Below are positions 3,223 through 17,261 of a stretch of DNA of 64,000 nucleotides, one piece after another; the stretch's first letter is position 1; each line of letters opens with the position of its first letter. The position numbers were made by a program, and so were the translations under genes. The stretch is from a bacterium. GTDB taxonomy: Bacteria > Pseudomonadota > Alphaproteobacteria > SP197. Location of the stretch: the NCBI GenBank assembly GCA_028821455.1, contig JAPPGE010000005.1, positions 103,030 through 167,029 on the forward strand, read 5' to 3'. Below the pieces are notes generated by a model that ran no database searches, was not told the DNA's origin, and saw nothing but the letters and a program-made list of their open reading frames with translations.

Positions 3223-4022
3223 GCGGCACTCTTCGACTGCGTGGCATGGCGGCGCAGGAATTCACCTGCCAGGCGCACGTAGGCCCGCGTTCCCGCACAC
3301 TCAATATCGTATAAAAGCACCGGCTTACCGTGTGACGGCGCCTCGCTCACCCTGACGTTGCGCGGAATGAGCGTACGATAGACGAGATCGCCCATGACGC
3401 GGCGCACATCCCGTTCCACCTCGCGGGACAGGCGGTTCCGGCGATCGAACATCGTGAGCACGATCCCGCCGATATGCAGTCCCGGATTGTGGGTGCCGGC
3501 AATCCTCTCGATGGTGTCGAGCAGGAGCGAGAGACCTTCCAGGGCGAAGAACTCGCACTGCATGGGCACCAGGACCTCGTCGGCGGCCACCAGGGCGTTG
3601 AGCGTCAACAGGCTGAGTGACGGCGGACAGTCGACTAGCACGAACTCATGCCCCGCCATCACCTCGGAAAGCGCCGTTGCGAGAACGCTCTGGCGTTCGG
3701 AAACGTCAACCAGTTCGACATCGGCGCCGGAAAGATCGGCGGTCGCCGGAATGAGGGACAATCCCGGTATCATGGTGGGCGCCGGCGTCACCTTTTCCCC
3801 GTTCAGCAGGTCGTATGTCGTCGCGGTTCTGGCCGAAGGCTCGAAACCCAGACCCGTGCTGGCATTTCCCTGGGCGTCCGCATCGACGACGAGAACCTTG
3901 TGTCCCGTGGCGGCAAAGGCGGTTGCAAGGTTGATGACGGTGGTCGTCTTGCCCACCCCGCCCTTCTGGTTGGCCACGGCCACCACCAGGGGCCGCGCAA
4001 GGCGATCACGGTCGAGAGTCAT
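3219..4022 (-). CDS. parA: chromosome partitioning ATPase ParA/Soj
   Basis: Contains the deviant Walker A motif KGGVGKTT. The start is set at the internal ATG ([22 protein letters not shown]) preceded by AGGA. The ORF-track start at 4061 would overlap rsmG by 56 nt. Confidence 0.85.
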   Translation of the reverse strand: MTLDRDRLARPLVVAVANQKGGVGKTTTVINLATAFAATGHKVLVVDADAQGNASTGLGFEPSARTATTYDLLNGEKVTPAPTMIPGLSLIPATADLSGADVELVDVSERQSVLATALSEVMAGHEFVLVDCPPSLSLLTLNALVAADEVLVPMQCEFFALEGLSLLLDTIERIAGTHNPGLHIGGIVLTMFDRRNRLSREVERDVRRVMGDLVYRTLIPRNVRVSEAPSHGKPVLLYDIECAGTRAYVRLAGEFLRRHATQSKSAA

Positions 4023-13524: not shown

Positions 13525-13784
13525 ACTCACACCTCCTATCCCCGTTGAGCCAGGCGGAGCCGGCAAGACGCGAGAAAAGCATGACCGGCAGGCGCCAGGA
13601 TCGCAACCCTGGCGATGCCGTTGCGTCCGGCGCAATACAGGGTCTGCTACGCAGGCATTCCGCGCTCGGGTGCACGTGACCGATCTGGTCGGATGAAGAC
13701 GGCGAGTTTCGTGTTGTTCAGCCTGATCTTTCTTGACACCTTGGCGTCTGCAGTTGCCATCTTGAAAGGACGGGGAAGAACGCC

Positions 13785-14285
13785 ATGACATTCGACAGAA
13801 GACGTGCATTGGGACTGGTCGTCGCCGTCGGGCTTCTGCAGGCTGGCCAGGGCTCGGCCGCTGCAGAAACCGGCAGTTTCGCCCTCACCTCGAGCCTGAC
13901 AAGCCAGTACGCAAGCATCACACACATGGACGGAACGATCTTCAGCGGAACCTCTGAGGGCACGAGCACCATTGTCAGGAGCAGTGGCGAACCCTTCGTC
14001 GAGGGACGATCCATGCAAACGTCGTGCATCGTGTCCGGAAAGACTTCGGCCGCCGGAACTGAACTCGATGGGGCCTGCACCAGCGCGAATTCTTCGGGCG
14101 ACATGCTGTTCTCGATTGCCAAGAGACGTGTGGATGGCGCCGCAGAAGAAGGCGGTGAGGGAGATCTGAAGCTGCTGGGCGGTGCCGGCAGGTTCGAGGG
14201 CATCACCGGAACATGCTCCTACGACACCGACTATCTGACGGAGACGGTCTACGTCACCTGGGCGGAGTGTACCTGGCAGCGATAG
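13785..14285 (+). CDS. exported hypothetical protein (166 aa, Ser/Thr/Gly-rich, 6 Cys)
   Basis: It has an RR-containing signal peptide (MTFDRRRALGLVVAVGLLQAGQGSAAAE) with an upstream GGGGAAG Shine-Dalgarno. The overlapping antisense ORFs look like GC-frame artefacts. Confidence 0.5.
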   Translation: MTFDRRRALGLVVAVGLLQAGQGSAAAETGSFALTSSLTSQYASITHMDGTIFSGTSEGTSTIVRSSGEPFVEGRSMQTSCIVSGKTSAAGTELDGACTSANSSGDMLFSIAKRRVDGAAEEGGEGDLKLLGGAGRFEGITGTCSYDTDYLTETVYVTWAECTWQR

Positions 14286-14354
14286 ACACAATCGGTTCGG
14301 GATCGGCGCACAGCCAGACCGTTGGGTCACGATCTCCTTGAACCACCTGTTCCG

Positions 14355-15389
14355 TCAGGATGACAGCGAGACCCTTTCGCGGGTGGCGGCCACCAACCGG
14401 TCGGCGCAGCGCACCATTCGAATGCGCCCGGCCCTGATTTCGGCTTCCCGCCGGCGCCAGCGTTCGGGAATGCCCTCGAGGCCGAAGCGGGCGCCAAGCA
14501 CGGCACCGGCAATGGCGCCGTTGGTATCGGTATCGCCGCCTGCCTCGATCACCTGGCGCAGACCCTGTTCGAAATCCCTCGCCCGCCAACAGGAAATCAG
14601 CGCTGCCTGGAGAGAGAGCAGCGTGTACCCCATGTCGCGACCGTCGAACTTCAGGTCATCCAGCGTTGAGACCGACGCCTCGTCAACCGCGTCCGCCACA
14701 CTCTGCGGCGCTCGCGTGTCGTAGCCATAGGTCTTAAGTCGCGGCAGGGATGCCGCCATGCCTGCCTCGGCTTCCCTCATCAGCATGTCCGGGCCGAGGG
14801 TCGTGCCAGTGAGAGCTGCGGCAGCGACGAGATTGGCGATCGCGCACGACCAGCCGCATCGCACGTCCCAGTGTGTCGGCACCGCCGAGACCACGCTCTC
14901 GCATACCAGCCGGTCCCTGGCATCGCGCCAGAGGATCGAAAGGGGTGCGGTGCGTATCAGTGCTCCATTCCCGGCGCGGCTACCTTTCCACCCCTTCCGC
15001 GACGCCTCGATGATCGGCATGCCGTCCGGCTTGCGGGGCTTGCCGGTCAGACGATTGCGGGCGAGCCGTTGTGGATAGGCGCCGCCATAGAGCGACAGGA
15101 CAGAGCCGGTCAGCCTGCCCATTCCCGCACCGTTCACTTCCGCCCAGTGCCAGAACCGCCGGCCAAGGTCGTCGATGTCGAGACCGTCTCCACCCGTTGC
15201 CGCTTCGGCAATGATGATGGCCTGCGCCAGATCGTCGTCGTCGGGATACCCGGGTCGTGCAGCGATGTTCTCCATACCCCGGTGAAAGGCCCTGGCGATC
15301 GAGGATCTTGGCCATCCCTCTGTCGTGATGCCGAGGAGATTGCCGACAGCCAGTCCGACCATCAGGCCCCGCGCGCGATCATCAACCAT
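14355..15389 (-). CDS. ADP-ribosylglycohydrolase family protein (ARH/DraG-like)
   Basis: Has the ARH fold signatures (GLMVGLAVGNLLG... DTDTNGAIAGAVLGARFG). Its start overlaps the upstream ARPP-1-like gene by 8 nt, so it is the second gene of the operon. Confidence 0.85.
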   Translation of the reverse strand: MVDDRARGLMVGLAVGNLLGITTEGWPRSSIARAFHRGMENIAARPGYPDDDDLAQAIIIAEAATGGDGLDIDDLGRRFWHWAEVNGAGMGRLTGSVLSLYGGAYPQRLARNRLTGKPRKPDGMPIIEASRKGWKGSRAGNGALIRTAPLSILWRDARDRLVCESVVSAVPTHWDVRCGWSCAIANLVAAAALTGTTLGPDMLMREAEAGMAASLPRLKTYGYDTRAPQSVADAVDEASVSTLDDLKFDGRDMGYTLLSLQAALISCWRARDFEQGLRQVIEAGGDTDTNGAIAGAVLGARFGLEGIPERWRRREAEIRAGRIRMVRCADRLVAATRERVSLSS

Positions 15390-16302
15390 GGTGTGCGCTC
15401 CCGGTGGTGTCGTACGAGAACGAGGCATGGATCAGCGCATCATCCAGGACCAGTGCCTGGCCGGTCAGACGTCGGTCGGTGACCCGGTGTTCGCAGCCGA
15501 GCCCGACACCCGGCGCGGTCCTGGCCGGTGATGTGCTCAGCCGCCTGATGTTCCTGAGGGCAAGTGTGGCTGACGGGCGTCCTTGGGACGGTCTGTTTTC
15601 GATGAAGTGCGACCGGACCAGCGCTCCCCAGTGTTTGCGGAGAAGGTGCGGCGCACCGAAGAGATCCATGGCTGTGACATCCCTGCCGTGCGCCACGACC
15701 ACGCCGCACTGTCCGGGAAGCGGACCACGTTCGACGAGAGCTTCGACGGTCTTCCAGCGGGAGTGATGCCGCCGGTAGGATTCTTCCAGGTCCGCGGCGG
15801 CGCCCGTTGGAGACGCGACACCTTCACGAAGCATCATGGCCGAGATGTCCTCCCAGATGGCGTGCTGGTCGCTCATCCGGTTCCGGTCGACACTGAAGGA
15901 CCTGTTGACGCTTGCCCGTTTCCTTTTCCGGATGCTCTCGGGCGCAAAGGCCTGCGCACGGCGCCATGCCCGGTGGCGTCCCCATCGACCCTGTTCCAGA
16001 CATGATACGGGAATGTCGAGCTTGGATCCGGCCGGAACGAGAACAGTGGCGTTGATGGTGCGATTCTGGTTGCCGCCGGTGAAATGCTCACCCTCGACGA
16101 TCAGGATCGGCTTGTCGGTTGGATTGGTGACCTTGAGGGCTCTCACTGTCGCGACATCGAACTCGCTCACGATCAGTCCCGATGACTCGCCGGTGTCGAT
16201 GGCCGGAAGGGGGTTGTGTGTCAGATAGACGGGGAAGAACGAGACACCGAGGCGCGTGATTGGAGATCCTACGGCGGAGATTTCAAGGCTGGGTATGGTC
16301 AT
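15382..16302 (-). CDS. ARPP-1-like protein (uncharacterised partner of ADP-ribosylglycohydrolase/Nudix modules)
   Basis: 306 aa with an ATG start behind GAGG. The assignment to the computationally described ARPP-1 family is from memory of NUDIX/ARPP-1/ARG gene triads and is not verifiable here. Confidence 0.55.
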   Translation of the reverse strand: MTIPSLEISAVGSPITRLGVSFFPVYLTHNPLPAIDTGESSGLIVSEFDVATVRALKVTNPTDKPILIVEGEHFTGGNQNRTINATVLVPAGSKLDIPVSCLEQGRWGRHRAWRRAQAFAPESIRKRKRASVNRSFSVDRNRMSDQHAIWEDISAMMLREGVASPTGAAADLEESYRRHHSRWKTVEALVERGPLPGQCGVVVAHGRDVTAMDLFGAPHLLRKHWGALVRSHFIENRPSQGRPSATLALRNIRRLSTSPARTAPGVGLGCEHRVTDRRLTGQALVLDDALIHASFSYDTTGSAHHG

Positions 16303-16320
16303 GCTGGCCTCATTCGGTTT

Positions 16321-16369
16321 ATTGTGATACTGACAATTATATGACGCTATATATTGTCATTGCAACAAT
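16321..16369. promoter_or_regulatory. two 17 bp palindromic operators (ATTGT-N7-ACAAT) in the NrtR-like/ARPP-1 divergent intergenic region, overlapping a sigma70-like promoter for the minus-strand operon
   Basis: ATTGTGATACTGACAAT is at 16321-16337 and ATTGTCATTGCAACAAT at 16353-16369. On the minus strand, TTGCAA (16365-16360) - 18 nt - TATAAT (16341-16336) forms the promoter, with the operators sitting on the -35 and -10/TSS. Confidence 0.6.
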
Positions 16370-16403
16370 AAAAGTGGCTTGGTCGAACCAGCGAGGAAAT
16401 ACC

Positions 16404-17261
16404 GTGAATTATCCGCCATTTGCCGTCACCGTCGACATAGCGCTCTTCACCATCGAGGATGACACCTTCAAGATTCTGCTGATCGAGCGTGGCGGTGATC
16501 CCTATCGCGGGGATCTCGCCCTGCCGGGTGGCTTCGTGCTTCCCGATGAGGACCTCGAGGCGGCAGCCGCCCGGGAACTCGAGGAGGAAACCGGTCTCGC
16601 CGAAGGTTCGTGGCACCTTGAACAACTCGCCGCCTATGGCGATCCGGCGCGGGATCCACGCATGCGGACGGTGACCGTCGCCTTCTGGGCCATCACCGCC
16701 GGTCTGCCCCGTCCCCGAGGCGGCGGCGACGCGGCGGCTGCCCATCTCGTGCCCGTGGACGGAATCGAAAGCGGTGATCTTCGTCTCGCCTTCGATCACG
16801 ATCGGATTGTCGGGGACGCGGTGAAACGGATCCGCTCACGACTCGAGACGACGACCATCGCCGCCCAGTTCTGTCCACCCGCCTTCACGGTGGCAGAGTT
16901 GCGCAGGGTCTACGAGACGATCTGGAACACTCCTCTCGATCCGGGGAACTTCCAGAGGTTCGTGCGCGACAGCGGCGTGTTCAGACCCGCACCGTCCGGC
17001 GGACCGGGTGCCCTCGCAGCACCATCCTCGGTCGCTCTCGAATCGGCGCCGTCCCTCGAGCGTCTTGAATCAGGGCAGGAGGTGATGCGTCGAGCGATCG
17101 ACGACGCAGAGAGCGCGCCTTCATCCGATGCGGAGCCGTCCATGGACCTCTCTGGGCCACGACAGCAAAGGCGCGGGCGACCGGCATCGAGATGGATGGT
17201 GCCGGAAGGGCGGCCGCGCCTGCTTGCCCGGCCGCTGCGCCGAAAGACCGGCGACCCGTGA
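16404..17261 (+). CDS. nrtR: NrtR-family Nudix hydrolase-like transcriptional regulator (Nudix domain plus C-terminal winged helix)
   Basis: A GTG start behind GAGG. The Nudix box is GGFVLPDEDLEAAAARELEEETGL, and the C-terminal FTVAELRRVYETIWNTPLDPGNFQRFV matches the NrtR winged-helix hallmark. It is divergent from the ARPP-1/ARG operon. Confidence 0.75.
   Translation: MNYPPFAVTVDIALFTIEDDTFKILLIERGGDPYRGDLALPGGFVLPDEDLEAAAARELEEETGLAEGSWHLEQLAAYGDPARDPRMRTVTVAFWAITAGLPRPRGGGDAAAAHLVPVDGIESGDLRLAFDHDRIVGDAVKRIRSRLETTTIAAQFCPPAFTVAELRRVYETIWNTPLDPGNFQRFVRDSGVFRPAPSGGPGALAAPSSVALESAPSLERLESGQEVMRRAIDDAESAPSSDAEPSMDLSGPRQQRRGRPASRWMVPEGRPRLLARPLRRKTGDP

Follow-up and report, generated by a model that had tools for sequence, protein, structure and literature searches.

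Paired palindromes over the divergent nrtR/ARPP-1 promoter region as predicted operators of an NrtR-family regulator

In a 64,000-nucleotide stretch of an alphaproteobacterial genome (hereafter the window; assembly GCA_028821455.1, contig JAPPGE010000005.1, positions 103,030 to 167,029), a 101-bp gap (16303-16403) separates two divergent genes. It is flanked by the minus-strand ATG (16302) of a gene for ARPP-1 and by the plus-strand GTG (16404) of nrtR, which encodes a regulator of the NrtR family. We propose that two palindromes within this gap are operators of the adjacent NrtR-family protein, which would repress the ARPP-1 operon and be released from the DNA by ADP-ribose. Drawing on sequence and on analogy with the family, we put the probability of this reading as a whole at about 80%. 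What sequence and comparison establish is the family of the regulator, the presence and conservation of the two predicted operators, and the fact that both overlap a conserved promoter.

As the preliminary description of this DNA had it, two 17-bp palindromes with identical arms lie between the regulator and its target operon. The motif ATTGT-N7-ACAAT occurs in the gap as ATTGTGATACTGACAAT (16321-16337) and as ATTGTCATTGCAACAAT (16353-16369), 32 bp apart from start to start. A pattern search of the 64 kb tolerating up to one mismatch returned just these two matches, both exact, against 0.007 exact matches expected from base composition. Each core is part of a 21-bp palindrome, called from the sequence and the exact pattern match and assigned to neither strand: operator O1 (16319..16339; TTATTGTGATACTGACAATTA) has the form TTATTGT-N7-ACAATTA, and operator O2 (16351..16371; ATATTGTCATTGCAACAATAA) the form ATATTGT-N7-ACAATAA. 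The earlier remark that these sites lie in GC-rich surroundings was also borne out, with a GC content of 40% in the gap and about 65% in its flanks. When scored with a weight matrix built from the other loci described below, leaving the window out, O2 reached 35.3 and O1 30.5; as the best non-site in the window scored only 1.0, we find no further site locally. Separately, a 16-nt inverted repeat (81% complementary; 16273-16288 and 16402-16417) joins the first codons of ARPP-1 and nrtR across the gap, probably by chance.

Related loci were collected by scanning one genome per bacterial or archaeal species with an alignment of 32 homologues, which yielded 80 loci, all from metagenome-assembled genomes (MAGs). 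The exact motif was found 74 times in the 675 kb of these loci, against 0.07 expected, and all 69 matches in full-length loci fell 30-260 bp upstream of nrtR. The palindromes are conserved in orthologous intergenic regions, as the preliminary description required: at least one exact site was present in 54 of the 80 loci, and 48 of the 80, in addition to the window, had canonical twin sites. Many of the remaining loci carry two variant sites, for example ATTGTCA-N3-TGTCAAT at a 26-bp spacing. In an unbiased count of palindromes with 5-nt arms and spacers of 3-11 nt, ATTGT-N7 ranked first (54 of 80 loci, none in the control region), followed by TATTG-N9, TTGTC-N5 and TTATT-N11. The enrichment of these register-shifted palindromes as well indicates that the palindrome extends to about 21 bp, TTATTGTC...GACAATAA. 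Across the 48 related twin-site loci, the information content is about 2 bits at each arm position, compared with about 0.1 bit at each position of the O1 spacer. All 48 have TTGT at positions 2-5 of the O1 left arm, position 1 is kept in 47 of 48, and the right-arm core of O2, ACAA, is also invariant.

This distribution bears on the question of which protein recognizes the sites. Binding by an unlinked transcription factor, with the proximity of nrtR being incidental, appears very improbable. Every exact match in the 675 kb lies upstream of an nrtR homologue, the sites stay with nrtR where its neighbour is not ARPP-1 (L045 and L062) and do so across phyla, and nothing was found in favour of such a factor. 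Identical arms were found in MAGs carrying the labels Alphaproteobacteria, Acidobacteriota, Gemmatimonadota and Spirochaetia; being common to at least four phylum-level groups, they do not constitute the lineage-specific operator suggested at first. Nor does the half-site depart from known NrtR motifs, as had been thought, since TTATTGT-N7-ACAATAA fits the published 21-bp GT-N7-AC core (PMC2330246).

A twin-site scan was also run on viral contigs and gave 71 matches, none of them adjoining an NrtR, ARPP-1 or ADP-ribosylglycohydrolase (ARG) homologue. Their median GC content of 38% points to chance matches in A/T-rich phage DNA. In five GC-rich viral contigs (L084, L116, L119, L125 and L150), two ATTGT-N7-ACAAT palindromes 30 bp apart (for example L116, 5839-5885) belong to a degenerate short-period repeat in what looks like coding DNA; genes for NrtR, ARPP or ARG are absent from their vicinity, and we judged these palindromes unrelated.

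The distance between the two sites ranges from 30 to 38 bp among relatives, 36 bp being the commonest (21 of 49 twin-site loci, that is, the 48 related ones and the window), and the 7-bp separation of the arms stays constant throughout. The 32-bp spacing given in the preliminary description was confirmed by measurement, but its interpretation as three helical turns by design did not hold up against this range. For the same reason, we reject cooperative binding on one face of the helix at a 32-bp spacing as a conserved trait; the spacing tracks promoter geometry and not helical phase.

That geometry is set by a promoter for the ARPP-1 operon. A promoter scan found the minus-strand TTGCAA-N18-TATAAT exactly as first written, with 10 of 12 positions matched. 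The -35 hexamer TTGCAA (16360..16365, minus strand, read 16365-16360) corresponds to O2 positions 8-13 and lies across the centre and right part of site 2; the -10 hexamer TATAAT (16336..16341, minus strand, read 16341-16336) shares its last two bases with the outer end of the O1 right arm. From the hexamers, transcription of ARPP-1 is expected to start at about 16329, inside the spacer of site 1. O2 therefore includes the -35 of the operon promoter, and O1 runs from the final 2 nt of the -10 across the predicted start into the beginning of the 5' untranslated region (UTR). The earlier statement that one palindrome covers the -35 and the other the -10 and start was right for the -35 in site 2 and for the start in site 1, whereas cover of the -10 amounts to just 2 nt. 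A Shine-Dalgarno sequence, GAGG (16308..16311, minus strand), was read from the sequence 5 nt before the ARPP-1 ATG; most of the related loci inspected have GGAGG or GAGG there.

Among the 49 twin-site loci, the best minus-strand promoter matched 10-11 of 12 positions in 37, and 39 had the -10 at O1 positions 15-23, on its right edge, with the -35 inside O2; in most related loci the -10, at O1 positions 15-21, takes the form TATAAT, TATTAT or TATATT, and in most it terminates in the outermost bases of the O1 right arm. The placement of the -35 depends on the distance between the sites. In loci with sites 33-38 bp apart, it is TTGACA at O2 positions 3-8 (32 of 35 loci), and in those with sites 30-32 bp apart it is found at O2 positions 8-13, as TTGCAA or TTGATT (8 of 14 loci). 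With the shorter distances, a -35 at positions 3-8 would leave a spacer of 13 bp, and the shifted hexamer restores 17-18 bp. Where the inter-site distance has shrunk from 36 to 32 bp, as in the window, the -35 is displaced by 5 bp inside site 2. We take this compensation as good evidence for a genuine promoter and for joint selection of promoter and operators. The sites overlie a conserved predicted sigma-70-type promoter, in the position expected of a repressor, and the repressor-operator architecture claimed in the preliminary description is well supported computationally by conserved sites overlapping a conserved promoter.

The same overlap allows for an explanation with no repressor site, in which the symmetry is a by-product of overlapping divergent promoters whose TTGACA/TATAAT-like hexamers mimic ATTGTCA/TGACAAT. 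In line with it, the O2 left arm, TTGTCAA, reads TTGACAA on the opposite strand and provides the -35 in most relatives, and each site has an A/T-rich -10 element next to its right arm. We nevertheless regard it as highly unlikely. The O1 left arm, which falls within the 5' UTR and not in any hexamer, is nevertheless near-invariant in the 48 loci; the ACAA core of the O2 right arm does not vary either; and in the window's clade, where the -35 has moved into the O2 spacer, ATTGTC is still kept. Moreover, the arms remain 7 bp apart while the inter-site distance changes, and the motif fits the consensus of an independently defined transcription factor family.

Even less probable, in our estimation, is that the inverted repeats act as hairpins in the RNA leader, controlling termination, stability or translation. 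The whole gap as minus-strand RNA does fold at -22.3 kcal/mol, with z = -2.0 relative to shuffled sequences, but this modest value arises from the nested repeats. As the predicted starts lie inside the repeats, neither transcript would hold both arms of a palindrome. The arms are merely 5-6 bp long and A/T-rich, the scan found no terminator-like site, and the best Rfam match to the gap was no better than chance (16.7 bits, where the cut-off is 40 bits; E = 0.44). The spacer varies and the arms never change, so there is no compensatory pattern to test.

The preliminary description had further claimed that the architecture autoregulates the divergent regulator gene. This is clear in most relatives, in which a nrtR promoter brackets site 2: the plus-strand sequence TTGAT(A/T)-N17-TAT(A/T)TT exactly flanks that site in 33 of the 49 twin-site loci. 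In loci with a 33-38 bp spacing (L011-L034 and others; around their positions 3930-3995), the nrtR ATG or GTG lies about 6 nt past a TATATT -10 that abuts site 2. A start codon this close to the -10 in most relatives implies a leaderless transcript, which would be repressed through site 2. These bracketing hexamers have been lost from the window's clade, where nrtR begins with a GTG behind a Shine-Dalgarno sequence and its product is 14 residues shorter at the N-terminus; the nrtR 5' UTR of this clade, with GAGGA and the GTG start, is about 40 nt long. In the window, the Shine-Dalgarno sequence GAGGA (16393..16397, plus strand; read from the sequence) precedes the nrtR GTG by 6 nt, and its counterpart is gaggaa throughout L001-L008 and ggagac in L009. 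The promoter scan placed a tentative nrtR promoter, CTGACA-N16-TATTGT (16330-16335 and 16352-16357, plus strand; 9 of 12 positions), whose -35 falls in the O1 right arm and whose -10 falls in the O2 left arm; the expected start is at about 16364. Other members of the clade with sites 32 bp apart have comparable hexamers, such as TTGACA-N16-TATTGT in L003 and GTGACA-N16-TATAGT in L001. Autoregulation of nrtR is therefore plausible in the window's clade, where the case is weaker and relies on this 9/12 promoter call.

The regulator itself (nrtR, 16404..17261, plus strand; 285 aa, GTG start) was identified as a Nudix-winged helix protein, in agreement with the preliminary description, both by Pfam domains and by structural matches. 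Pfam assigned NUDIX (PF00293, 63.1 bits, residues 13-128) and NrtR_WHD (PF21906, 33.4 bits, cut-off 27). An AlphaFold2 model (predicted template modelling score 0.72) matched best the L-arabinose repressor BtAraR (5bs6) and Shewanella oneidensis NrtR in complex with DNA (3gz6), with target-normalised TM-scores of 0.71-0.73. By its sequence, the protein is a member of the NrtR family that falls outside the equivalog NF050029. Of 120 homologues, 116 have the recognition-helix motif LDPGNFQR, paralleling the near-invariant operator arms, and DPGNFQR aligns with the DNA-contacting DKRNFRK of BtAraR, with which it shares the adenine-contacting Asn. About 21 residues past the recognition helix, most homologues carry RRGRPAxxW, which is modelled within the wing. 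This motif was considered as a free AT-hook tail and rejected, given its position and its folding onto the winged helix with a predicted local distance difference test (pLDDT) score of 82-87. That the A/T flanks of the sites are conserved agrees with the RRGRP wing entering the minor groove, by analogy with BtAraR, in which Lys204 and Arg205 of the wing sit in the minor groove (PMC4666351).

The Nudix box, GX5EX7REUXEEXGU, is intact in the window (16530-16598, residues 43-65) and in 118 of 120 homologues, from which it follows that the regulator may hydrolyse its ligand. The box is degenerate in the two NrtR proteins that were tested biochemically, which have no hydrolase activity; among NrtR homologues of cyanobacteria, ADP-ribose pyrophosphatase activity goes together with an intact box (PMC2330246).

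Taken as a mechanism, one NrtR dimer would bind each 21-bp site TTATTGT-N7-ACAATAA, with the recognition helices probably reading the ATTGT/ACAAT arms in the major groove and the RRGRP wing the A/T flanks in the minor groove. Judged from the observed geometry, occupancy of either site would block RNA polymerase, and the presence of two sites would make repression tight. The same sites overlap the much weaker candidate nrtR promoter, through which the regulator probably limits its own synthesis. By analogy with the family, ADP-ribose or a close derivative would bind the Nudix domain, the protein would leave the DNA and the operon would be switched on; the protein may then reset the switch by hydrolysing the inducer through its intact Nudix box.

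Several points weigh against the reading of the palindromes as operators of an ADP-ribose-responsive NrtR repressor. Occupancy of O1 and O2 and its effect on transcription are wholly inferred. Many of the source MAGs are related to one another, and the number of independent observations is therefore smaller than 80. The nrtR promoter in the window's clade is weak and its placement tentative. A disordered, low-complexity insertion of about 55 residues (pLDDT below 50) splits the wing at residues ~200-264, ahead of RRGRPAxxW; such a long wing insertion is restricted to the window's clade. Finally, the protein scored 109.6 bits with NCBIfam NF050029, the equivalog of ADP-ribose-responsive NrtR, against a curated cut-off of 400, so that the identity of the effector cannot be transferred with confidence, and the family can switch ligand, as BtAraR has done to L-arabinose.

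The last two points define the one alternative that we take seriously, although it seems to us clearly less probable than induction by ADP-ribose: operators and repressor as described, with an inducer other than free ADP-ribose, be it a derivative of it that is phosphorylated or modified in another way, another nucleotide or a sugar. Besides the low NF050029 score and the precedent of BtAraR, it draws on the invariant partner being ARPP-1 and not the glycohydrolase, and on the published outline of such neighbourhoods, in which the Nudix factor is interchangeable with WYL-domain factors that are thought to sense other nucleotides. On the other side, the Nudix box is intact in nearly all homologues, the neighbouring enzyme, where present, releases ADP-ribose, and the best Nudix relatives in NCBIfam and PDB are ADP-ribose pyrophosphatase domains and the NrtR-ADP-ribose complex. 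If the inducer is not ADP-ribose, the switch would report something besides the breakdown of NAD.

Repression relieved by ADP-ribose, as proposed here, follows what is known of NrtR proteins of NAD metabolism. Their sites are mostly 21-bp palindromes with a GT-N7-AC core, and the two members assayed in vitro are repressors that ADP-ribose releases from DNA (Rodionov et al. 2008, PMC2330246). In the Mycobacterium divergon of nrtR and nadABC the operator is GTTTTCGA-N7-TCGAAAAC (PMC6800001), and S. oneidensis NrtR acts on prs-nadV (PDB 3gz6). The window shares with these systems the Nudix and winged-helix domains, the 21-bp GT-N7-AC palindrome and a divergent promoter region in which sites overlap promoter elements. 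It differs in its predicted targets (ARPP-1 and ADP-ribosylglycohydrolase, in place of NAD synthesis or salvage), in its ATTGT/ACAAT arms, in the presence of two full sites on the -35 and on the -10/start, in the intact Nudix box and, unlike characterised NrtR, in scoring below the NCBIfam equivalog cut-off. BtAraR of Bacteroides thetaiotaomicron, an NrtR-family L-arabinose repressor that binds two tandem sites with a dimer on each (PMC4666351; PDB 5bs6, 5dd4), resembles the window in being the best structural match and in its 21-bp sites, arranged as a tandem pair at its main operon. It differs in its effector, in its helix (DKRNFRK instead of DPGNFQR) and in its sites, which are semi-palindromic and 3 or 42 bp apart.

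Two further sets of published loci come closer in gene content. Divergons of nrtR with nrtX-nrtY, and a nrtR1-draG operon, with predicted sites, were described in Proteus mirabilis, Hahella, Kineococcus, Frankia and Streptomyces (PMC2330246). The divergons resemble the window in that an NrtR-family gene is divergent from a two-gene operon with predicted sites between them, and Streptomyces nrtR1-draG in its link to an ADP-ribosylglycohydrolase. The gene names nrtX and nrtY were not found in other papers. If these genes are ARPP-1 and ARG, the regulatory link was predicted in 2008, and only the details of the motif and its phylogenetic spread would be new. The second set comprises the ARG-centred counter-ADP-ribosylation systems of Iyer, Burroughs, Anantharaman and Aravind (Iyer et al. 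2022, PMC9503650). Section 3.8 of that article brings together ARG, ARPP and a Nudix-HTH negative regulator that is proposed to sense ADP-ribose, puts forward a role against viral ADP-ribosylation and treats a phosphatase (about 55% of systems), a chaperone or an effector nuclease as optional features. The ARG gene of such systems has no ADP-ribosyltransferase or sirtuin coupled to it. Its association of a Nudix-HTH regulator with ARPP is found here, in that an NrtR-family gene adjoins a PF20208 ARPP-1 gene. As far as section 3.8 describes these systems, the likeness extends to the gene set, the wide and patchy phyletic spread, the variable accessories and a vWA-ARPP fusion, seen here in Actinomycetota loci; the difference lies in the lack of phosphatase, chaperone and nuclease in the window's operon and in the lack of ARG from most of the 80 loci. 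That section, the only part of the article to mention ARPP or NrtR, describes no operator or promoter.

The operon under the predicted control of the two sites consists of two minus-strand genes. The first (15382..16302) encodes ARPP-1 (306 aa; Pfam PF20208, E = 5e-64, 216.8 bits), and the second and last (14355..15428) an ADP-ribosylglycohydrolase (357 aa in the longest open reading frame (ORF); PF03747, E = 3e-46), the true start of which may be an internal ATG at 15389. In about 73 of the 80 related loci, ARPP-1 is the divergent neighbour upstream of nrtR. A glycohydrolase gene follows it mainly in the alphaproteobacterial subset, and most loci consist of a nrtR plus ARPP-1 core without ARG. 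By these comparisons ARPP-1 is the constant, presumably regulated gene of the module and the glycohydrolase is variable. L005 and L007, 80-85% identical to the window in DNA sequence (comparison over 13612-15186), lack the glycohydrolase and keep ARPP-1, nrtR and both operators. No phosphatase, chaperone or effector nuclease was found in the operon, which ends at ARG, and PADLOC returned no meaningful matches. A comparison of ARPP-1 with plasmids gave just four distant DUF6569-annotated matches (26-29% identity) and no cultured example.

In seven Actinomycetota-type loci (L055, L063, L065, L066, L074, L076 and L080), ARPP-1 is fused to a vWA domain (549 aa in L055). These loci are without the canonical ATTGT-N7-ACAAT, and their nrtR upstream regions share TTGACAATAAC...GTTCTTGTCCTGTCAAC, possibly a rearranged operator. 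Downstream of the window's operon, a 166-aa ORF (13785-14285, plus strand) converges on the glycohydrolase gene; its N-terminus, MTFDRRRALGLVVAVGLLQAGQGSAAA, is signal-peptide-like and its product is small and exported-looking. The stretch 13612-14344 is conserved only in the closest relatives (L001, L002 and L006). An opposite-strand ORF (13647-14330, minus strand) was considered as a third operon gene and rejected because its composition is not protein-like, the ORF at 13785-14285 being more plausible. Four flanking ORFs were scanned with Pfam, giving a Rieske oxygenase and a permease and, further out, an ORF without a Pfam match. Two ORFs looked old-yellow-enzyme-like and racemase-like, by eye only.

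The nrtR/ARPP-1 module was recorded in MAGs labelled with at least seven phylum-level groups (labels as recorded), and the identity of the NrtR core reached up to 90% between phylum labels, for example between Vicinamibacterales and Spirochaetia. Many of the source bins are named like sponge symbionts (Spongiisocius, APA, RHO, COS). Complete MAG chromosomes with the system include OZ220705.1, OZ244844.1 and OZ243917.1. Together, the high cross-phylum identity and the sponge-style bin names suggest recent horizontal spread within one type of community. A more speculative interpretation, which we offer tentatively and consider rather doubtful, is that nrtR, ARPP-1 and the control region of about 100 bp form a self-contained, horizontally mobile cassette, acting as a self-resetting ADP-ribose alarm that controls a conflict activity of ARPP-1. 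The cassette's own near-consensus sigma-70 promoter and two invariant operators would then ensure correct regulation on arrival in distant hosts, and the activity of ARPP-1 would be a new one, directed at ADP-ribose or ribose and used against phages or neighbouring cells.

An NrtR-type operator at a divergent regulator-target promoter is a known arrangement and not a new kind of element. What is new is the sequence of the operators, their arrangement as one site on the -35 and one on the -10/start, the compensating change in the promoter and the conservation across phyla. The loci also offer a case of operator-promoter co-evolution, in which 4 bp were lost between the operators and a new -35 arose 5 bp away, within the spacer of the operator. 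For the Nudix-HTH regulators of ARPP/ARG genes, this analysis provides an operator and promoter map of a module so far known from gene-neighbourhood analysis only, and the 21-bp consensus, the two-site layout and the predicted starts make the module experimentally tractable. A screen for inducers of the switch is probably the quickest way to the signal behind ARPP-1, a widespread protein. The layout is otherwise that of an ordinary repressor and its operators, and its main value lies in the entry it gives to ARPP-1 and to the predicted ADP-ribose-centred conflict systems.

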